From: an uncultured Bacilli bacterium
GTDB lineage: Bacteria; Bacillota_I; Bacilli_A; RF39; UBA660
Reading direction: 5' to 3'
DNA length: 55,010 nt
Assembly (NCBI GenBank): GCA_947589195.1
Contig: CANPZX010000001.1
Coordinates: forward strand, 1 to 55,010
Shown here: positions 4,685 to 55,010 of the stretch, piece after piece
Layout of the letters: every line of letters starts with the position of its first letter
Numbering within the stretch: the first letter of the stretch is position 1
Position numbers and translations under genes: made by a program
The notes under the pieces: generated by a model
What the model saw: the letters and a program-made list of their open reading frames with translations, nothing else
What the model was told of the DNA's origin: nothing
The model's database searches: none

Positions 4685-4742
4685 AGTTATTCTTTATTTT
4701 TTTTTATTGTTTCGTGCTATAATAATTTGTGTAGGTGAAAAC

Positions 4743-7283
4743 ATGAAACGTAGTGAAATAAATAAAGAAGAACTAAGTCCGATGATGCGGCAATATTATG
4801 ATTTAAAAGAAGAATATAGTGAAGAATTATTGTTTTTTCGTTTGGGCGATTTTTACGAATTATTTTTTGAAGATGGCGAAATAGCTTCTCGGGAATTAGA
4901 ACTTACTTTAACGGGAAAAAATGCCGGATTAACCGAAAGAATTCCCATGTGTGGGGTTCCATTTCATTCCGTTCAACCTTATATTGAGAAATTAGTCAAT
5001 AAAGGTTATAAAGTAGCTATATGTGAACAATTAGAAGATCCGAAAGATGCTAAAGGCATGGTAAAAAGGGGAGTTGTTCAAGTAATAAGTAAAGGAACTA
5101 TTGTTGATTCCGAATTATTAAGTGAACATGAAAATAACTATATTGCTAGTGTTTTAGATTTTTCTTTTACCTATGTTTTATGTTATGCAGATATCTCGAC
5201 GGGATATCTAGGAGTCATGAATGTTGAGCATAAAACCGATAAACTCTTAAATGAAATATTAAATTTAAAAATAAAAGAAGTAATCTTAAAAGATAAAAGC
5301 GATTTAGAATTAATCGGCATCCTAAAAGGTAGTTATGGTATTGAAGTATCGATAAGTGATGGTTTTATCACCGATAATGCTTTGGTTGATAGTGTAGATG
5401 ATATTCGTTTTAAAGAAGGAATAAAACATTTACTTTATTATTTAATCGTTCGTGAATTAAAAGATGTTTCTCATATTAAAGAAGTCGAAATAATTAATAG
5501 AGATGACTATTTAAGGATGGATGTTCATACCATTAGAAACTTAGAATTATTTGAAACTTTAAGATTAAAAGAAAGAACTTATTCCTTAATCTGGCTTCTT
5601 GATAAAACGAAAACTAGTATGGGTAGTCGTAAACTAAAAAACTTTATTATGAATCCTTTAAAAGATAAAAATAAAATAAATGAACGATTTGATAAAATTA
5701 CCACTTTAAATACCGAATTTATTTTAAAAGAAAGATTAAGAGATTTATTATATGAAATATATGATATTGAAAGATTATGTGGGAAAATTGCTTGCGGTTC
5801 TTTAAATGCCAGGGATTTATTACAACTTAAAAATAGTCTAAAAGTTTTACCTGAAATAAAAGAAATCTTAACCGAATTAAAATTTGATTATCAACTAGAA
5901 ACGCATGAAGAAATCTATAATTTATTAGAAAAAGCGATCTATGAAAATCCTCCGGTATCGTTAAAGGAAGGTTTCTTAATTAAAGAAGGTTATAATCAAG
6001 AACTAGATGATTTAAAAGAAATAAGAAGTGGGGGTAAAAACTTTATTGCTGATTTTGAAAATAAATTAAAAGAAGAAACGAAGATTAAGAATTTAAAAGT
6101 TGGTTATAACCGGGTATTTGGTTATTATATTGAAATATCTAAAGGTCAAATTAAAGAATTACCTAGTAATTTGAATTGGGAAAGAAGACAAACTTTAGCT
6201 AATGGGGAAAGATATATTTCCCCAGAATTAAAGGAAAAAGAAGCTTTAATTTTAAATGCCGAAGAAAAGATCATTGAAATAGAATATAATTTATTTAATG
6301 AAGTTAAAGAAGAAGTAAAAAAACATTTAATTGCTCTCAAAGATACGGCTGAAATTATTAGTGAGATTGACGCTATTTCATCTTTAGCCGTTTGTGCCGA
6401 AGAATATAATCTAGTAAGACCAGAATTAAATGATAAACATATAATTGATATTAAAGATGGGTTCCATCCAGTTATTGAAGTTGTCAGCAATAATGCTTAT
6501 GTTAAAAATGATTGTTTGATGGACGAAGCCACCCAAACTTTATTAATTACCGGTCCCAATATGAGTGGTAAATCAACCTACATGCGCCAACTAGCGATAA
6601 TTATCATCATGGCTCAAAGTGGTTCTTTTGTCCCCGCTAAATATGCTAATTTACCAATTATTGATAAAATATTTACGCGGATTGGAGCTAGTGATGATTT
6701 AGTAAGTGGCGAGTCAACCTTCATGGTCGAAATGAATGAAGCTAAAAATGCAATTATGAATGCAACAATTGATAGTCTTATCTTATTTGATGAACTAGGT
6801 AGAGGAACAGCGACATTTGATGGGATGAGTCTTGCCCAAGCTATCCTTGAATATGTCAACAAAAATATTAAATGTAAAACTTTATTTTCGACTCATTATC
6901 ATGAACTTACTTCTTTAGAAAGAGAAATGTCTAGTATTAAAAATATTCATGTCGCGGCCTTAGAAGAAAATGGCACAATTACCTTCTTACATAAAATTAA
7001 AAATGGCGCGGTTGATAAAAGTTATGGGATTCATGTCGCTCGTCTTGCCGGAATGCCTGAAGAACTAACTAAAAGAGCAAGTGAAATCTTAGCCTTTTAT
7101 GAGAATAATAAAACTAAAGAAAAAGCGGATAATAAAGTTCAACTTGAAATGGTTTTTGATGAACCAGTTGTTCCCAATAAACTAAAAGATTATTTAGATA
7201 AAATAGATCCTGTTTACATGACCCCAATGGAAGCTATCAACAAATTATATGAATTAAAAGAATTAGCTAAAAATGACAAGTAA
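4743..7283 (+). CDS. mutS: DNA mismatch repair protein MutS
   Basis: N-terminal PMMRQYYDLK, Walker A GPNMSGKSTYMRQ, DELGRGT, STHYHEL. ATG 4743 follows the RBS AGGTGA; the track ORF opens at 4707. Confidence 0.95.
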   Translation: MKRSEINKEELSPMMRQYYDLKEEYSEELLFFRLGDFYELFFEDGEIASRELELTLTGKNAGLTERIPMCGVPFHSVQPYIEKLVNKGYKVAICEQLEDPKDAKGMVKRGVVQVISKGTIVDSELLSEHENNYIASVLDFSFTYVLCYADISTGYLGVMNVEHKTDKLLNEILNLKIKEVILKDKSDLELIGILKGSYGIEVSISDGFITDNALVDSVDDIRFKEGIKHLLYYLIVRELKDVSHIKEVEIINRDDYLRMDVHTIRNLELFETLRLKERTYSLIWLLDKTKTSMGSRKLKNFIMNPLKDKNKINERFDKITTLNTEFILKERLRDLLYEIYDIERLCGKIACGSLNARDLLQLKNSLKVLPEIKEILTELKFDYQLETHEEIYNLLEKAIYENPPVSLKEGFLIKEGYNQELDDLKEIRSGGKNFIADFENKLKEETKIKNLKVGYNRVFGYYIEISKGQIKELPSNLNWERRQTLANGERYISPELKEKEALILNAEEKIIEIEYNLFNEVKEEVKKHLIALKDTAEIISEIDAISSLAVCAEEYNLVRPELNDKHIIDIKDGFHPVIEVVSNNAYVKNDCLMDEATQTLLITGPNMSGKSTYMRQLAIIIIMAQSGSFVPAKYANLPIIDKIFTRIGASDDLVSGESTFMVEMNEAKNAIMNATIDSLILFDELGRGTATFDGMSLAQAILEYVNKNIKCKTLFSTHYHELTSLEREMSSIKNIHVAALEENGTITFLHKIKNGAVDKSYGIHVARLAGMPEELTKRASEILAFYENNKTKEKADNKVQLEMVFDEPVVPNKLKDYLDKIDPVYMTPMEAINKLYELKELAKNDK

Positions 7284-7363: not shown

Positions 7364-8074
7364 ATGGAAAATCATTTAATAAATTATATAATTAGTTTAA
7401 TGCCTAAAGGATTTGCTGATATGCAAATGAATGAAAAAGTATTACGTTTTTATTTAACGACTAATTTAAAAAGATTGTTTAATGAAGTAGAAGACTTTTA
7501 TCCTGTAAAAGATAGTGAAAAAAGTCTTAAAGAAGATGACAAAGTAGTTGGAAATGAAACTCGAGTTAATGTTAACGGGGAAGAATATGCTATCGTAGTT
7601 AATAATGAAGGAATTAACTTTAAAAGCTTAACTAATCCTTTAGCTTTTAAAGTATCTTCTAAAAATATGGTTATGAATAATTTTGTTATTAGTATGGATA
7701 ATGAGGATTGTCTTAATAGCGAATATTATAATGTATCTTTAGGTCAAAATAATTATTATGATTATCAAAAAACTATAACTGATAAAGATAATAATAAAAT
7801 AGAGCTACCTCTTTATCGTCTTTCTAATATGCGTTTTCGAAAAAATAATAATGAATATTTTAATTTAAGTGTAATTTCTAATAAACAAGCTAATTCTAAA
7901 TCTTTTTTAAAAAGTTTATATGATTATGTTAATTCTGTTAAAGGCAAAAATGAAAGGCTTATAGCTACTAGTGATGCTTTAGATGATATTTTAGATTATT
8001 TACCAGATATTTATGATTCTTTATATGCTGAGACTGTTAAAGCAGAAAAAGCTGAAAATAGTTTACATGCCTAG
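7364..8074 (+). CDS. Hypothetical protein (N/K/D-rich, no recognised motif) at the position where mutL is usually found
   Basis: 236-aa ORF with a strong RBS (AAGGAGTGA) and its own terminator. No family recognised. Confidence 0.6.
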   Translation: MENHLINYIISLMPKGFADMQMNEKVLRFYLTTNLKRLFNEVEDFYPVKDSEKSLKEDDKVVGNETRVNVNGEEYAIVVNNEGINFKSLTNPLAFKVSSKNMVMNNFVISMDNEDCLNSEYYNVSLGQNNYYDYQKTITDKDNNKIELPLYRLSNMRFRKNNNEYFNLSVISNKQANSKSFLKSLYDYVNSVKGKNERLIATSDALDDILDYLPDIYDSLYAETVKAEKAENSLHA

Positions 8075-8129: not shown

Positions 8130-8525
8130 ATGGCATTAAAACGCAGCGAATTAAGAGAAAAATGTATGGTTATTTTATATCAATATGATTTACTTAAAAA
8201 AACTAAAGTAGATATTAATATTGATGAAATAATAAAAGATAATTTAGATATGGAAAATGAATTTGTAAAAAATATTGTTTATGGGGTAATTACGCATGAA
8301 AATGAATTAGATACCTTAGCTAATAAATATTTAAAAGATTGGCCAATTGAACGCTTAGATAAAACGGGAAGTGCGATTTTAAGAATGGCTTTATTTGAAC
8401 TTAAATATATGGATACTCCCGAGATAGTGGTTATTAATGAAGCGATTGAACTAGCCAAGAAATATAGTGATGAAGCGATAAGTAAGATCATTAATGCAGT
8501 TTTAGATAAAATAATTAGAGAATAA
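8130..8525 (+). CDS. nusB: Transcription antitermination factor NusB
   Basis: 131 aa. R..REK.M..LYQ N-terminus, LDKTGSAILRMALFEL, INEAIELAK; followed by xseA/xseB as in Bacillus. Confidence 0.9.
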   Translation: MALKRSELREKCMVILYQYDLLKKTKVDINIDEIIKDNLDMENEFVKNIVYGVITHENELDTLANKYLKDWPIERLDKTGSAILRMALFELKYMDTPEIVVINEAIELAKKYSDEAISKIINAVLDKIIRE

Positions 8526-17760: not shown

Positions 17761-18130
17761 TTTGGGTTTATCACCCCGCAAGGAGAAGTAGGATTAATGT
17801 ACCCAAGTGATTATGGCTATGCAACCGAAGGAGGCAGTTTAGGACGAAACTTATGTTTAAATTAATTGGAGTAATGGAGAATATCAAAGTAATTGTGCAT
17901 ATACCGATTGGTTATTAAACAAAGATTCGTCTCAACATCGGATATGGACTCTTTCGCCGCATTCGTCCTCTAGCGATCATGCTTTCTATGTCTTTATTTC
18001 AGGACATGTCAAAAATAGCAGCTACTATGTCTATGGTCAAGGTGCCGTTTCTCCAGTCCTATATCTAAAAAGCAATATAGAAATAAGTGGAGGAGAAGGT
18101 AGTCCTTTAAATCCATATATTTTAAAATAA
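17761..18130 (+). pseudogene. 3' remnant (copy E) of the NPY-tail surface-protein family, frameshifted
   Basis: Reads ..PQGEVGLMYPSDYGYATEGGSLGRNLCLN, then shifts frame to WSNGEYQSNCAYTDWLLNKDSSQ..WTLSPHSSSSDHAFYV...AVSPVLYLKSNIEISGGEGSPLNPYILK. This is collinear with the last ~120 aa of the gene ending at 48058. About 9 of 10 nt were identical over the first 60 nt I aligned by eye. Confidence 0.8.
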
Positions 18131-27203: not shown

Positions 27204-28424
27204 ATGAATTTAAAAAAATTTTCTAAAAATAAAAAATTAACTACTAGTTTAATCTTATTAGGATTATTTTTCCTAATTGGTGGAGGATTCTTGATTTATC
27301 GGACCTTTGCTTTATATTCTGAAAATAAAGAATTTAATGTTATTAAAGGTAGAGTTCCGGAATTTATAAAAGGACTTAAAAGTTTTGATGAACTAAAAAC
27401 TTATGCGGTTCCTAATTATTGTATTGACCATAATATTGTTCAAGTTTCTCATGAAAGTGATTATATTGAAGAACTTGATTACCATGCTTTTAATAGCTCT
27501 TTAACTAACGAAACAGTATATAACAATTTAAAAATGCCCGAGTATCGTTTTTGTGGGTCTAATCCCAATAACTATGTAACATTTAATGGTGAAGTTGCTG
27601 GGTGGCGAATAATTGGGCTTGTTAATACGCCGGAAGGTCAACGGATCAAATTAGTTAGAGCTAATCCTTTAGATGTTGAATTAGCTTGGGATAATAAAGC
27701 TGCCGGAGTAGGGACAGCAACGTTTGATTATGGAAGTAACGATTGGACAGATGCTGCATTGCAAGAATTATTGAACAAAGGTGCTTATTATCTTGGTCAA
27801 AGTGGTAATTGTCCATTAGGACAAAAAGGAGGAACAATTCCCTGTGATTTTAGCGAGTCTGGCTTAACAGATAATGCTAAAGAAATGATTGATACAATTA
27901 CTTGGAATCTAGGGGGTTATTATACGCAAGATATGTCGGTTTCTAATGCTGATTTAGTAAAAAACTTTTATGAATATGAAAGAGGTAAAGGAACATATAG
28001 ATATACTAGTAATAGACCACTTATGTGGCAAGGAAAGATTGGTTTATTGTATCTTTCTGATTATGGTTATGCTGCTGGAGGAATGGGTAAAGAAATGCTT
28101 TACTATCCCCAATGTATGGCGACTCCGATGTTTAACTGGGGATCAAACGAAAATTATATTTTCTGCTTATATGATAATTGGTTAAATAAAGAAAACTTGG
28201 GCCAATGGTTGTTAATGCCAGATGATCAATCTAATTTTATGGTATGGTATTATTATAATAAAGGGCAAGACTCATGGCCATATTCAATGTTTTTATCGAA
28301 TGTAAATGATTTATATGAACCAGCTAGTGTAATTCCCACTTTATATTTAAAACCTAATGTCGAGATTAAAAAAGGTAATGGGACTATAGAATATCCTTAT
28401 GAATTAACAATAAAGACGCTTTAG
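27204..28424 (+). CDS. NPY-tail surface-protein family, copy B (short N-terminal region)
   Basis: N-terminal anchor ...GGGFLIYRTFALYSE. NNYVTFNGEVAGWRIIGLVNTPEGQRIK, YGSNDWTD..LQELLNKG, IDTITWNLGG, WQGKIGLLYLSDYGYA, VIPTLYLKPNVEIKKGNGTIEYPYEL. Close paralogue of copy C. Confidence 0.75.
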   Translation: MNLKKFSKNKKLTTSLILLGLFFLIGGGFLIYRTFALYSENKEFNVIKGRVPEFIKGLKSFDELKTYAVPNYCIDHNIVQVSHESDYIEELDYHAFNSSLTNETVYNNLKMPEYRFCGSNPNNYVTFNGEVAGWRIIGLVNTPEGQRIKLVRANPLDVELAWDNKAAGVGTATFDYGSNDWTDAALQELLNKGAYYLGQSGNCPLGQKGGTIPCDFSESGLTDNAKEMIDTITWNLGGYYTQDMSVSNADLVKNFYEYERGKGTYRYTSNRPLMWQGKIGLLYLSDYGYAAGGMGKEMLYYPQCMATPMFNWGSNENYIFCLYDNWLNKENLGQWLLMPDDQSNFMVWYYYNKGQDSWPYSMFLSNVNDLYEPASVIPTLYLKPNVEIKKGNGTIEYPYELTIKTL

Positions 28425-32655: not shown

Positions 32656-32743
32656 AGCTCTAAAAACTTTTTATATTTTTTTTCATTTTTTTGTTAAAAA
32701 AAAAAGGAAAATACAGATTTGCGGGTAATAATTATATTAGGAG

Positions 32744-35164
32744 ATGAAAAATATGAAAAAAAATTTGTTGTTAGTTGTAAGTAGTATTTTATTAGTAGTT
32801 TGTAGTTTTTTAGGAGGTGCTCTAGTTGTCTCGGCTAGTGAGACTGCTAAATTTACGGAGTCTTTTATTGGCCAGTACCATTATGTTGATACTAAAGGTA
32901 AATATGGTGATTTTCAACATTTTACTAGAGTAAGTGATGGGATGATTGCTTATTGTATTGAACCAGGAGTTCCACCTACAAGTAGTAGTTATGAAGGTTT
33001 TTCCGATTTATCTTTAGAAGAAATGGCTCTTAAAGTGGGGTTAAGTAGTGAAACTTTAGAAAAGGTGAGTTTAATAGCTTACTTTGGCTATGGTTATCAA
33101 GACCATTTAAGTGATGAATGGATTGTCGCGACTCAAAGTTTGATTTGGCAAGAAACGGGGCGGAGTTTTTCGTTTACTAGTAAAAATAATCGGGAAGATC
33201 CTGATAAATATAAAATTAGTACGCCAAAGACTATAAAAAGTAAGATGGAAGAGATTACTTCTTTAGTTAATGATTTTATAAAAAAACCAATTTTACCAAC
33301 AGAAGAAGTAAAATTATGGCAAGGCGAGTCTCATTATTTCCAAGATAGTGCCTTAAAAAATTATCAAATAAAAAATAAAGTAAATTGTACAGCTAGTTTA
33401 AATGGTGATAATTTATTCTTTACCACGGAAGGAAATGAAAGTGGCAAAATTGTCTTAGAAAGAAAATATACCGCTTGGAATGGCAGTTTTATCGTCTATC
33501 ATCATCAAACTGGTCAAGATATGATTGTTCCTGGCAAAGGTATTATGGACGAAATAGAATATAATTATACCTTAGTTAAAGGTAAAGTAATTATTAATAA
33601 AAAAGATGGTAATACTAAGAGTTGTACCCCTGAATTAAAAGATACCGTTTATCGGTTATATGATGCTTATACGGAAGAATATAAAACCGATATTTATGTT
33701 AATGAAAATTGTCAAGCTATTTTTGGGTATATATTTCAAAAAGGAAAATATTACATTCAAGAATATAAAGCTCGTCCAGGGTATAAATTAGATGATACTA
33801 AATATTATTTTGATATTAATGATGAAATAACGGAAGTATCATTTGATTTAGAGAATCAAAGATTACTAGGTCAAATTAAAATAACTAAGTTGGATAAAGA
33901 TAGTAAAACTTGTCAAAGTCCTAATCATACTAGTTTAACTAATGCCGTATATGGAATATATAAAACAACCGGGGAGTTAGTCGATCAACTTATCACTAAT
34001 GATAATTGCGAGGCCCTATCTTTAAGAAACTTAGAAATGGGAGATTATTATTTAGAAGAAATCACGGCTCCGTTAGGTTATCAAAAAGATTTAGAAAAAC
34101 ATTATTTTAGTATTACCTTAGATAATGTTGAAGACATAATAGAAATACCTTTACAAGATGAAGTAATTAAAACTGAATTAATTATCAATAAAACATATTT
34201 AGTAAATAATGAATTAAAACCCGAAATCGGGGCCGTATTTGCCATATATGATGAAATAACTAATAACTTAGTTGCTACTCTTACCATTGATGAAAGTGCC
34301 CAAGCTAATGTTGTACTTACATATGGTACATATATTTTAAAACAAGTAAGTGGCCAACCAGGTTATGAAAAATCTAAAGATTTAAGAATTATCGTCGATG
34401 AAAATACTAAGATAAAAACTTATATTACTTTATTAAATCAAGAATTTAAAGTTCGGTTAAAAGTTAAAAAAGTAGATGAATTAGGGAATCTTTTAAATAT
34501 TCCCAATATAAAATTTAAAATTTATGATTTAATAAATGAAAAGTATGTATGTCAAAAAATAACTTATCCAGAAGTTAAAGAAATATGTGAATTTAGTACT
34601 TTAGAAAATGGAACATTTATAACCCCGATGGGCTTAAAACCATCTAAATACTTACTAGAAGAAGTAAGTGATACTAATCCCGGTTATATTTGGAATAAAG
34701 ATGGTTTAGAGTTCGAAATAAATCCCGATTTAAGTTATCAAACGGATCCTGATTTAGGATTAATACTAGAATTAGATTTTGTTAATGAAAAAATGAATGG
34801 CAAATTAGAGTTTTATAAATTAGATAAAGAAACTAAAAAACCTTTATCAGGAGCGATAATTGATATTTTTAGAGAAGATGGTAGTTTATATAAATCTTTA
34901 ACAACTGATGAAAATGGCCGAATATATTTAGAAGATTTAGAATATGGTAAATATTATTTAGAAGAACATTTAGCCCCTAATGGTTATACTTTATATGAAG
35001 AAAAAATGTGGTTTGAAATTGTCAATAATGATGTTATTGAATTAATTATGGAAGATGAAATAATTGATATTCCTAATACTTATTTAAATGAAATTGATTA
35101 TTTTAGTATCTTTAATATCATAACTATTTTAGGTTTAATAATTTATGAAAAAAAATATTGTTAG
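32744..35164 (+). CDS. Cell-surface adhesin: signal peptide, thioester (TQXA-type) domain, multiple Cna-B/SpaA-fold domains, C-terminal sorting-like signal
   Basis: Signal peptide ...VVSASE. Thioester pair candidates AYCIEPGVPP (Cys71) and VATQSLIWQ (Gln131). Repeated modules of the type GKLEFYKLDKETKKPLSGA...GKYYLEEHLAPNGYTL. Tail IPNTY + FSIFNIITILGLIIY + EKKYC. Confidence 0.85.
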   Translation: MKNMKKNLLLVVSSILLVVCSFLGGALVVSASETAKFTESFIGQYHYVDTKGKYGDFQHFTRVSDGMIAYCIEPGVPPTSSSYEGFSDLSLEEMALKVGLSSETLEKVSLIAYFGYGYQDHLSDEWIVATQSLIWQETGRSFSFTSKNNREDPDKYKISTPKTIKSKMEEITSLVNDFIKKPILPTEEVKLWQGESHYFQDSALKNYQIKNKVNCTASLNGDNLFFTTEGNESGKIVLERKYTAWNGSFIVYHHQTGQDMIVPGKGIMDEIEYNYTLVKGKVIINKKDGNTKSCTPELKDTVYRLYDAYTEEYKTDIYVNENCQAIFGYIFQKGKYYIQEYKARPGYKLDDTKYYFDINDEITEVSFDLENQRLLGQIKITKLDKDSKTCQSPNHTSLTNAVYGIYKTTGELVDQLITNDNCEALSLRNLEMGDYYLEEITAPLGYQKDLEKHYFSITLDNVEDIIEIPLQDEVIKTELIINKTYLVNNELKPEIGAVFAIYDEITNNLVATLTIDESAQANVVLTYGTYILKQVSGQPGYEKSKDLRIIVDENTKIKTYITLLNQEFKVRLKVKKVDELGNLLNIPNIKFKIYDLINEKYVCQKITYPEVKEICEFSTLENGTFITPMGLKPSKYLLEEVSDTNPGYIWNKDGLEFEINPDLSYQTDPDLGLILELDFVNEKMNGKLEFYKLDKETKKPLSGAIIDIFREDGSLYKSLTTDENGRIYLEDLEYGKYYLEEHLAPNGYTLYEEKMWFEIVNNDVIELIMEDEIIDIPNTYLNEIDYFSIFNIITILGLIIYEKKYC

Positions 35165-46330: not shown

Positions 46331-46401
46331 TAATATTTTTTTATTTACATAACAATAAATTTTATGTTATTATTTCTATAGAATAAAGGAGATGTTAAGA
46401 A

Positions 46402-48058
46402 ATGACTGAAACACGTTTAGGGGGGGGGGTTATTAAGAAGTAAGAAAGTAATCCTTACATCTTTAATAATCTTCCTTGTAGCATTAGTAATAGGGGTAAC
46501 TTATGCTTATTGGAAAGTAGATGAAAAACAAACTTCCTTAAATTTATTAAATTCTAATTGTTTAAAAGTAACATATGAAGACATAAATGAAGGGATAACG
46601 ATTGAACATGGCTATCCCATGAGTGATAGTGATGGCATGGAGGAACCATATTACCAATTTACGATATCAAATATCTGTGAAAATGATTGGGCCTCTTATC
46701 AAATAAATATAGAAACAATTGAAGCTTCAACAGAGGAAACTCCCAAATATTTGCCGGAGCGATATATAAAAGCTAATTTAAGTGTTGGAGAAGATAGTAA
46801 AGTAACAACGAAATTAACAAGTGATTTAAATGTTACACCAACAATTGAAGAAGCAGTAAGAGCTTATAAATTATTAGTAGCTAAATTAGCCCCAGGAGCA
46901 AGTGTAACTTATGATTTAAGATTATGGATGGACGAAGGAGTAACAATGGAAAACACCGATGCAATGAACGCTACCTATGAAAGTAAGATAAGTGTAGTCT
47001 TTAGTTATATGGAACCACCAGTATATTTAGTCGATAAAATAAAAGAACAAGCAAGTAAAGATGAAAATGTCTGTGGAGATAATGGAATAGTAGAAGTAAA
47101 ACATGATGACGCTACGATTGCAGATATTGATTATCATACATTTGATGAAAAATTAAATAATGAAACAGTAAAATCCAATCTAAAAATGACGGAATATCGA
47201 TATTGTGGAGAAGACCCTAATAATTATGTAACATTTAATAATGAAACAGCTGGCTGGCGAATAATCGGATTAGTTAATACTCCGGAGGGTCAACGAATTA
47301 AAATAATCAGAGCAACACCATTATATCTGAATTTATCATGGGATAATAAACCAAGTGGAACTGGTTCATCAAATAGCTCATATGGAAGTAATGATTGGAG
47401 CGATTCAAGATTACAAGAATTATTAAATAAAGGTGGAGCCTATTATAATCGAACAAGTGGTACTTGTTATAAAGGCTCAAGTAATGCATCAACCTCATGT
47501 AATTTTGGAGATAGTAGTGAAACACCTGGGTTAACCGCTGAAGCAAAAAATATGATAGATACAATTACTTGGAACTTAGGAGGAACTGCTAGTTACAGTA
47601 GTGCTTCCAATGGACTTACAAAACACTTTTACAATTATGAAAGAGGGATAATAGTTTACACAAACAGTAGTTTAACAAATCCAAGGCCAACCTTATGGCA
47701 AGGAGAAGTAGGCTTAATGTATCCTAGTGATTATGGATATGCAACCGGAGGAGGTAGTACCTATAACCGTGGAGCATGTTTAAGTAAGGAATTATACAAT
47801 TGGAGTAGTGGAACATATCGAAGTAATTGTGCCCATACAGATTGGCTATTAAACAAAAGTTCATATCAATGGACTCTATCGCCGTACTCGTCGGCTAGCA
47901 ACTATGCCTTCTATGTGCATACTGCGGGTATTGTCTACAGCAACTACTATGTCAACAGTGCGTACGCCGTCGCGCCAGTCCTATATCTAAAATCCGATGT
48001 GCAAATAGGAGAAGGGAGTGGTCTTGATACGAATCCTTATACTTTGGAACAAGGGTAA
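46402..48058 (+). CDS. NPY-tail surface-protein family, copy C; poly-G phase-variable, frameshifted (OFF) as sequenced
   Basis: ATG 46402 with RBS AAAGGAG. G10 at 46420-46429 gives MTETRLGGGVIKK-stop. With G9 the frame runs through LLRSKKVILTSLIIFLVALVIGVTYAYW... into the 479-aa track ORF (46619..48058). The span is 1657 nt, which is 3n+1. Confidence 0.8.
46420..46429 (+). repeat. G10 homopolymer (slipped-strand phase-variation tract)
   Basis: Counted directly: g at 46420 plus nine g at 46421-46429. Confidence 0.95.
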
Positions 48059-54505: not shown

Positions 54506-54719
54506 AGAAAATAAAAAAGTACTATTAATTAGTACTTAAACTTTAAGGAAAGGATGCGAGGATACAATTACAAATTGATAATTATATACCTGCTTTTAGA
54601 AAAGGAATAAATCCTTTCCTAATTAATAGTATACACTAATATTATTAAATTTCAACTATTTTTGATTTACTAAGTTAAATAAAAATGTTAAGATATAGAT
54701 AAGAATGGAGAAGATGAAA

Positions 54720-55010
54720 ATGGAAAAAATAGCAAATGGGGGGGGGGTTATTTAAGAGTAAGAAAGTAAGACTTTCTATTTTAATAATTCTCTTAATAAC
54801 GTTAGTAATAGGAAGTACCTATGCCTTATGGCAAATAACCCATATCCAAACCGGATTAAATAAATTAGCAAGTAATTGTTATGATATTGAATTTAGTGAA
54901 CAAGATAATATAGTTTTAAAAGAAGCCATACCGATATTAAATAGTGAAGGAGAAAAGTTAACTCCCTATATAATAAGCATCAAAAATACTTGTGATGCTG
55001 AAACTAAATA
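54720..55010 (+). CDS. NPY-tail surface-protein family, copy D (5' part only; runs off the window); poly-G phase-variable, OFF as sequenced
   Basis: ATG 54720 is 9 nt after GGAG (an in-frame ATG also exists at 54714). G10 at 54738-54747 gives MEKIANGGGVI-stop (TAA 54753-54755). With G9 it reads MEKIANGGGLFKSKKVRLSILIILLITLVIGSTYALWQ...TPYIISIKNTCDAETK and stays open to the window end. Confidence 0.75.
54738..54747 (+). repeat. G10 homopolymer (second phase-variation tract)
   Basis: Counted directly: ggg at 54738-54740 plus seven g at 54741-54747. Confidence 0.95.

Follow-up and report, generated by a model that had tools for sequence, protein, structure and literature searches.

Among the systems closest to the one considered here are the poly-G and poly-C tracts of Neisseria gonorrhoeae and Neisseria meningitidis, as found in pilC, and of Campylobacter jejuni. 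These tracts of around 8-13 nucleotides (nt) lie in the 5' coding region, where one third of the possible lengths place the gene in frame, and in pilC the tract is located inside the part that codes for the signal peptide. Such loci act on surface structures, and a genome has many of them. In the mycoplasmas the repeated base is A, which is found in the promoter in the vlp genes of Mycoplasma hyorhinis and within the coding sequence (CDS) in vaa of Mycoplasma hominis and p78 of Mycoplasma fermentans. Precedents for recoding are provided by Thermus dnaX, insertion sequence (IS) elements and the poly-A slippage of Buchnera, together with the +1 frameshifting of prfB. Here we describe a run of ten G (G10) at the start of a putative surface-protein gene, termed gene C, in a stretch of 55,010 nt from an uncultured Bacilli bacterium (GTDB RF39, UBA660; contig CANPZX010000001.1 of assembly GCA_947589195.1), referred to as the window. 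We favour, with reservations, the interpretation of this tract as a slipped-strand switch, and we detail how it is built, where else it occurs, and how it relates to the systems above.

Anatomy of the gene C locus

The window has a guanine-plus-cytosine (GC) content of 27.6 %. Within it, gene C is furnished with a putative promoter, a Shine-Dalgarno (SD) sequence and a start codon, and the G10 tract follows within the CDS (Table 1). In the G10 frame, as sequenced, translation stops after 13 codons. With nine G the same start leads into a product of 551 amino acids (aa) and with twelve G into one of 552 aa, MTETRLGGG(G)LLRSKKVILTSLIIFLVALVIGVTYAYWKVDEKQ..., and with eleven G translation terminates again after 11 residues (MTETRLGGGGY*). 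Whether a full-length product or a truncated one is encoded hence turns on a change in length by a single G, and the same holds for the related loci L061 and L063 described below. The original prediction, made from the letters of the window and a list of its open reading frames (ORFs), had already placed the SD, the start codon, the tract and the premature stop and worked out the joined product at G9 or G12 and the stop at G11; direct reading and translation bear out its coordinates and its frame arithmetic throughout.

The long frame is uninterrupted from 46421 to 48058. It opens only at 46421, because a TAG at 46418-46420 shuts it upstream, and it contains no ATG, GTG or TTG before 46619. 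For this reason the ORF list holds only a leaderless gene C fragment of 479 aa that begins at 46619, as the original prediction had also pointed out. We take ATG 46402 to be the real start of gene C, since no in-frame start is found between TAG 46418 and the Lys-Lys-hydrophobic anchor, and since a natural allele (P0121) runs from the same MTETRL start into this anchor. The leader cassette, the SD and the -10 region are near-identical in an independent contig, L001.

Several other roles for the tract were considered and rejected. An internal start after the tract is ruled against by the lack of any start in frame before 46619, and none of ATT, ATC and TTA shows conservation from locus to locus. 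Nor does the G-run serve as the SD of a downstream start, as no start codon is found at a suitable distance. Finally, it does not act as a promoter element of the kind seen in the rabbit metagenome-assembled genomes (MAGs) described below, because no -35 and -10 elements flank it and because it lies 3' of the conserved promoter, SD and ATG.

Non-random occurrence of the tract

Two G10 tracts are present in the window, where dinucleotide shuffles give an expectation of 0.02, and besides these two the window has no other run of G or C of 7 or more. The codon GGG accounts for 15.5 % of glycine codons in 20 ORFs totalling 9644 codons, and no further GGG-GGG pair is found among them. Across the window and its relatives, 36 distinct tracts were found, all of them on or upstream of genes of the same family. 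On these counts, the gene C tract is not a product of chance.

The second G10, which is absent from the original prediction, belongs to a paralog termed gene D that leaves the window at its edge. It lies at the same distance of 18 nt from its ATG and has the same frame offset as in gene C, with a stop two codons past the tract; removal of one G gives ...GGGLFKSKKVRLSILIILLITLVIGSTYALWQ... In gene D, the base before the tract is T, so that AAT together with the first G also makes an ATG at 54736-54738. This ATG is without an SD, and at G10 it shares the frame of the long ORF. Two thirds of tract lengths would hence have an in-frame ATG.

A further paralog in the window, gene B, is a homolog of the L061 genes and forms the tract-free counterpart of their G10. 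As gene B encodes its anchor Gly3 as GGT GGA GGA, the peptide needs no homopolymer. That gene B writes Gly3 otherwise, that GGG is a minor codon, and that no other GGG-GGG pair occurs, argues that it is the homopolymer itself, and not the peptide, that is under selection.

In-gene tracts in relatives

Four more in-gene G10 tracts are found in three other assemblies: one in L001 at codon 7, two in L061 at codon 26, and one in L063 at codon 16. All four are out of frame by the gene C offset, and G9 or G12 restores an ORF of 405-469 aa. L001 is a contig from ENA whose promoter, SD and leader are close to those of gene C, with the same offset and the same 18-nt distance from ATG to tract. The L061-L063 loci were found by sampling the dnaK neighbourhood in relatives whose DnaK is 90-91 % identical, and L062 represents a second assembly of one L061 locus. 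All of the in-gene tracts are thus G10 (6 loci, 7 assembled copies).

A departure from an intact tract in a gene is provided by P0121, the NCBI allele of the L001 gene, which is 99.7 % identical to it past residue 30. P0121 reads MTETRLGMVVLNSKIK... directly into the anchor, through a junction that is interrupted and in frame (MTETRLGMVVLNSK...). The first 30 codons differ between P0121 and L001 (2078-2200), MTKIRLGGG-LFKSKKLILASLIIF versus MTETRLGMVVLNSKIKLLSLIIL, and both genes end early at ...SLTRLIMLK*. This suggests that paralogs exchange their 5' cassettes and that P0121 is an allele whose interrupted tract locks it in frame. The junction in P0121 indicates that the reading from ATG to anchor is real and that 5' cassettes vary between alleles.

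In all three loci of the gene C type (gene C, gene D and L001), the G-run and a UUAUU are predicted to pair in the RNA with a downstream, U/C-rich segment that is AAUAAUCUUCCUU-like. The fold spans 46420-46478 and 54738-54796 of the window and 2096-2152 of L001, with z = -2.1, -2.8 and -0.9, respectively, and is weak and rich in G-U pairs.

Searches of wider collections returned little. A protein scan of the GTDB representative genomes with gene C gave no relatives, and the exact DNA pattern of tract plus flank gave none in the same genomes; the genus is evidently not among the GTDB representatives. A pattern scan of JGI metagenomes gave one match only (L030), which is unrelated and due to chance. 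A protein search with the N-terminal 205 aa alone returned P0013 as its sole match. The top-scoring DnaK match, P0123, lies on a contig with a different gene order and no tract, no tracts are present in five dnaK-region loci from two further DnaK relatives, and no same-species genome is found in the collections searched.

Putative promoter tracts in rabbit MAGs

A second placement of the tract is found in two rabbit MAGs, Lapin-008__bin14 and Lapin-004__bin27, whose housekeeping proteins are 55-68 % identical to those of the window. Here 30 tracts lie upstream of family genes, with a length of G10 in 25, G11 in 3, G9 in 1 and G8 in 1. Lapin-008__bin14 has 24 distinct copies (22 G10 and 2 G11, both G11 at contig ends), and the 6 copies of Lapin-004__bin27 consist of three G10, one G11, one G9 and one G8. 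In these conserved cassettes, 1-3 nt separate TTGACn from Gn and 7-9 nt separate Gn from TGnTAAAAT, after which come an inverted repeat, the SD and the ATG (L031-L059; for example, L044 394-457). The non-G part of the spacer is 10 nt in three cassette designs, which gives a 20-nt spacer at G10. In these cassettes the tract thus lies within the apparent spacer of a -35/-10 promoter. A promoter scan restricted to spacers of 16-18 nt gives an alternative, TTGATA-17-TATGGT, downstream of the tract.

The inverted repeat between -10 and ATG forms a predicted hairpin at L044 421-448 (z = -3.3) and L053 2843-2876 (z = -5.3) that covers the SD, is followed by a U-run, and is kept although the cassette sequences differ. 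It could represent an operator, an SD-sequestering hairpin or an attenuator. As the 5' arm of the hairpin overlaps the putative -10, it casts some doubt on the promoter assignment. A role for G10 as the boundary of a recombination cassette was rejected, because in the promoter type the conserved block spans both sides of the tract.

Contigs often end around 5-170 nt from tracts, as at the start of L062, the ends of L064 and L071, and in L034, L035, L036, L040, L043, L045 and L049 of Lapin-008. Such ends could reflect multi-copy repeats, loss of coverage past poly-G, or heterogeneity among reads. They were rejected as proof of read heterogeneity, because multi-copy cassettes explain the breaks equally well.

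Table 1. Features of the gene C locus, its paralogs and the related in-gene tracts. Coordinates refer to the window unless a contig is named.
Feature	Coordinates	Strand	Basis or remark
Putative gene C promoter, TTTACA-18 nt-TATTAT, extended -10 TG	46344..46373	+	Consensus scan, 10/12 matches
Shine-Dalgarno AAAGGAG	46385..46391	+	10 nt 5' of ATG; direct reading; conserved in L001
Gene C start codon ATG, leader MTETRL	46402..46404	+	Direct reading; P0121 allele
G10 homopolymer, frame-setting	46420..46429	+	Codons 7-9 plus 1 nt; direct reading
Premature TAA in G10 frame	46441..46443	+	Translation MTETRLGGGVIKK*
Basic-hydrophobic signal-anchor coding region LLRSKKVILTSLIIFLVALVIGVTYAYW	46430..46513	+	Accessible only after -1 nt or +2 nt
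Gene C body to stop codon	46514..48058	+	N-terminal beta-sandwich and C-terminal domain of ~330 aa (weak DUF6273)
Gene D Shine-Dalgarno GGAG	54707..54710	+	Direct reading
Gene D SD-served ATG, leader MEKIAN	54720..54722	+	18 nt to tract, as in gene C
Second G10 tract	54738..54747	+	Out of frame from ATG 54720: MEKIANGGGVI*
Gene D 5' part LFKSKKVRLSILIILLITLVIGSTYALWQ...	54748..55010	+	Leaves window at its edge
Tract-free paralog gene B	27204..28424	+	Anchor Gly3 = GGT GGA GGA (27279-27287)
Two G10 tracts, L061 (GCA_947630615.1)	5871-5880, 19140-19149		Codon 26 inside anchor: MELKKFKKNKTYKKTLLALGIATMCL-GGG-IILSKSYALY
G10 tract, L062	36-45		Second assembly of one L061 locus
G10 tract, L063 (GCA_947631035.1)	15317-15326		Codon 16
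MutS, full-length	4707-7283		Domains I-V

The gene C protein and its family

The databases contain more than 3000 homologs of gene C, and the source of nearly all is a MAG of uncultured gut Bacilli or "Tenericutes". The tract is missing from homologs at 56 % identity or less, whose N-termini are ordinary (MKKKK...; MKKKKVLIIMISIALILSVIGISYAVW...), and homolog N-termini align at the signal-anchor region of gene C. The closest homologs, P0002 (78 %), P0006 and P0013, have all been gene-called from the same internal MSDSDGM. A further homolog from another genome, P0003, has been called as MGGGLFKSKK..., a start that implies a junction of T plus G10 as in gene D.

Profile matches to the gene C product are weak. 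The DUF6273 family (PF19789) scores 15 bits against a Pfam gathering threshold of 23.5; some of the homologs bear a precomputed match to it. The SipW-type signal TIGR04088 reaches 12.9 bits, short of its cut-off of 19 (E = 0.098). An AlphaFold model built with 51 sequences has a predicted local distance difference test (pLDDT) score of 88, and consists of a helix at residues 3-31, a beta-sandwich at around 40-200 and a C-terminal domain of around 330 residues. The top match of this model in a Foldseek search of the PDB is the immunoglobulin A (IgA) peptidase of Thomasclavelia ramosa (9qa6; E = 1.5e-7 over 321 aligned columns), with a low template modelling (TM) score of 0.29. The next match is 7ueg, a TasA-like archaeal bundling pilin. 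At the sequence level, a profile search of the PDB with gene C gave nothing significant.

The N-terminal domain of the IgA peptidase is described by its authors as C-type-lectin-like, novel and not required for catalysis (PMC12237041). Since the gene C product is without an HExxH motif, the likeness to 9qa6 is presumably to this domain, which the C-terminal domain of the gene C product probably resembles in the model. We infer an anchored or secreted binding protein, and not an enzyme, that would be surface exposed.

How the tracts may act

The G10 tract is, in our judgement, rather likely to be a hypermutable simple-sequence repeat (SSR) that switches gene C by slipped-strand mispairing. Slippage at replication would alter the length of the tract and so set the reading frame. 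In the ON state, at G9 or G12, the SD-served ATG 46402 would be fused to the 545-codon frame, and in the OFF state, at G10 or G11, translation would terminate early. Gene C would be one of many such loci, with poly-G either within the first 7-29 codons (window, L001, L061, L063) or in the promoter spacer (Lapin-008, Lapin-004), such that each cell would express a random subset of a large and variable protein family. The uniform consensus of G10 would then represent the population mode, with ON variants in the minority, and fast-mutating tracts at mutation-selection equilibrium would share one mode across loci. Mutation of the tract at high frequency, and expression at G9, are both presumed in this scheme.

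That the tract is a selected contingency element is argued by three features taken together: the two placements, the AT-rich genomes, and the tract-free homologs along with synonymous Gly3 codons elsewhere. Wherever measurements exist for bacteria, a G/C homopolymer of at least 8 has proved unstable, even in mismatch-repair-proficient ones such as Neisseria, and it is the signature of a selected element combined with the instability of a 10-nt G-run in DNA that leads us to rank phase variation first. The poly-G of Treponema pallidum tprL varies between 7 and 11 G in vivo, with 9 in the vast majority (PMC7864442). A sharply peaked mode is hence compatible with phase variation, as tract lengths in T. 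pallidum peak in a like manner. The predicted product, with its N-terminal anchor helix, beta-sandwich and C-terminal domain, also has the look of a usual target of such switches.

A number of observations weigh against phase variation. Every in-gene tract seen, in 6 loci and in L062, is G10, the same loss of one nucleotide is needed everywhere, and none is ON in the consensus. Among the promoter copies of Lapin-008, 22 of 24 are G10, and the two G11 lie at contig ends; furthermore, the putative spacer of 20 nt at G10 is 2-3 steps away from the optimum of 17-18 nt. MutS is encoded in the window, and mismatch repair may damp slippage. The assemblies also appear to have a single rabbit-gut project and a single type of pipeline in common, and may hence share a technical bias. 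The claim of a contingency locus made in the original prediction therefore stands in part: the design, as a component of a multi-gene poly-G "phasome", is well supported by the comparative data (poly-G on this family in five assemblies, and tract-free homologs with normal N-termini), and length polymorphism within genes is what was not seen. Its description of the gene as 'currently OFF' agrees with the early stop of the G10 frame, with the proviso that a uniform G10 and a uniform offset could mean a constant state that is rescued by recoding.

Such recoding would make the tract a fixed signal, in which the DNA stays G10 and the protein is made either by slippage of RNA polymerase, giving G9 transcripts, or by a +1 frameshift on GGG-GGG-GGG-G; in that case a constant or regulated fraction would be expressed, and there would be no heritable switch. 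The run of 10 nt corresponds to the length of the RNA:DNA hybrid, and a frameshift would be aided by the minor GGG codons and the SD-like nature of the G-run. Six of six in-gene loci are exactly G10 and require the same shift (-1 nt, equivalent to +1 frame); they come from four organisms and represent at least three cassette designs, and the start of P0003 adds a further implied case. In gene C, gene D and L001 the 18-nt distance is maintained despite different leader peptides. By the usual marks of transcriptional slippage, a conserved homopolymer of at least 9 that is out of frame in 6/6 in-gene loci is indeed present, with G instead of A or T as the atypical feature; documented bacterial cases mostly involve A or T runs. 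The marks of a prfB-type site are lacking, as the zero-frame stops come 2-5 codons past the tract, no stop or obviously slow codon follows it directly, and there is no separate SD-like element. For a frameshift, 4-7 G would suffice, and at the level of the DNA a G-run of 10 nt is mutable by nature. The predicted hairpin of the three loci, which would favour recoding, is weak, depends on G-U pairs and contains the slippery site itself. The same tract also lies 5' of the -10 element in the 30 loci of the promoter type, at a position in which no ribosome and no elongating polymerase would read a frame. We know of no family-wide poly-G recoding in a Gram-positive lineage, and we regard the idea as unlikely, if worth keeping in view. 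It has a broader form, in which G10 is a fixed selected element throughout, recoding the in-gene copies and acting in promoters by DNA structure or through a G-tract-binding factor, and this we would rate as somewhat less plausible still.

If, alternatively, the length of the tract had been miscounted, such that it is really G9 or heterogeneous, the gene would simply be intact. Homopolymers are prone to error, the coverage of L001 is only ~2x by its contig name, and the related contigs appear to share a rabbit-gut project (ERZ272..., CANQ-CANR accessions, SPAdes-style names). Against this, Illumina consensus is reliable at 10-mers, L061 and L062 agree on G10 at ~9x, and homologous cassettes in these same assemblies also come out as G8, G9 and G11, so that nothing forces the length to 10. 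In total, 31 of 36 distinct tracts (32 of 37 with the second assembly) are G10 across assemblies. That contigs often end close to tracts, at around 35-170 nt, could speak for miscounting, yet cassettes repeated more than 20 times explain this equally, and we consider a miscount very improbable. Decay of a redundant family into frameshifted remnants that do not switch is more improbable again, and we give it hardly any credence. Family fragments in the window at 17779-18127, the 3' truncation of the L001/P0121 gene and the varying presence of genes upstream of hrcA between related genomes are what would be expected of it. However, the downstream frames of 405-545 codons are fully open in all five complete loci, the sole lesion is always G10 within the first 30 codons, and the 5' cassette, from promoter and SD to leader and tract, has been conserved across loci as well as organisms. 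Were decay independent, lesions would be spread over the genes, and no G10 would be built in DNA of 28-30 % GC.

Host context and significance

The window encodes SpoIVB, YqfD and YabP, together with cell-wall enzymes and a full-length MutS. Judged by this gene content, the host is a peptidoglycan-walled Bacilli lineage that has genes for sporulation and for some, if not all, of mismatch repair. The matches fit the 'spore-forming Firmicute' of the original prediction, with the refinement that this is a lineage of uncultured gut Bacilli MAGs and not Clostridium. The ORFs just 3' of mutS (7364-8074 and 8130-8525) are not of MutL size, and the first is without a Pfam match; mutL is hence not in its usual adjacent position. 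The presence of MutS and the place of mutL bear on the possible speed of tract mutation.

Two further sites in the window deserve mention. Between rpmA and hrcA, at 17779-18127, lie frame-broken C-terminal fragments of a family member. At the equivalent site upstream of hrcA, L061 has an intact G10-bearing family gene, and L066, L068 and L071 have other genes, and the site appears to be a hot spot of gain and loss. At 32696-32705 an A10 run is found ~40 nt 5' of a gene (32744-35164) for an 806-aa adhesin with a thioester domain (TED) and SpaA repeats. This may be another homopolymer near the start of a surface-protein gene, but A-runs are common in this genome (62 runs of at least 7).

Large SSR phasomes are textbook knowledge for a few Gram-negative pathogens, spirochaetes and mycoplasmas, and are to our knowledge hardly documented in Gram-positive gut commensals with sporulation genes; literature searches gave no paper on this lineage. 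The mechanism proposed here belongs to a known type. Its novelty lies in the lineage and protein family concerned, in the scale, with at least 24 loci in a single MAG, and in the occurrence of both placements together. In these uncultured, AT-rich rabbit-gut Bacilli, dozens of poly-G tracts are thus concentrated on one expanded family of anchored and possibly lectin-like proteins. If the tracts switch, they would give these bacteria a combinatorially diverse surface in the gut, for instance as a means against IgA or phage. A practical consequence concerns annotation, as automatic pipelines shorten or drop these genes, and four close homologs have been made public from the same internal Met. 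The uniformity of G10, finally, makes the family a clean test case for distinguishing DNA slippage from transcriptional or translational recoding.

Comparison with known systems

Gene C is like pilC of Neisseria and the poly-G genes of C. jejuni in having a tract in the 5' coding region of which one length in three is in frame. Unlike those systems, the host is an AT-rich, uncultured gut Bacilli bacterium with sporulation genes and MutS, and the in-gene tracts have one length, G10, and one offset, with switching a matter of inference. The Lapin cassettes, in turn, are like tprE/G/J, tp0126 and tprL of T. pallidum, where poly-G is found in the promoters of paralogous genes for surface proteins. 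The tp0126 tract separates the -35 from the -10 element, and the best spacer there is 17 nt, compared with a putative 20 nt in Lapin at the modal G10. The differences from T. pallidum are that the tract of the window lineage is inside the CDS and that the Lapin cassettes have a strong inverted repeat between -10 and ATG.

The mycoplasma families, among which vlp of M. hyorhinis is with the T. pallidum genes the closest parallel to the promoter-type relatives, also consist of multigene surface proteins with a conserved 5' homopolymer cassette, and both placements are found in that one group, which is itself near the Bacilli. In contrast to them, the homopolymer here is G and not A, an extreme choice in DNA of 28 % GC, and the proteins are signal-anchored or SipW-like with two domains and not lipoproteins. 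At the level of the protein, the likeness to the N-terminal domain of the T. ramosa IgA peptidase and to the TasA-type pilin is one of fold only, in the absence of HExxH, and hence of a peptidase domain, and of any sequence match in the PDB. With recoding systems, the tracts share a conserved out-of-frame layout, a constant direction of shift, a homopolymer of hybrid length and a G-rich, SD-like sequence. They differ from prfB in having no stop in the A-site and no SD 3 nt upstream, and from the slippage sites known to us, which are of A or T, in that the run is of G and is also found where it is not translated.

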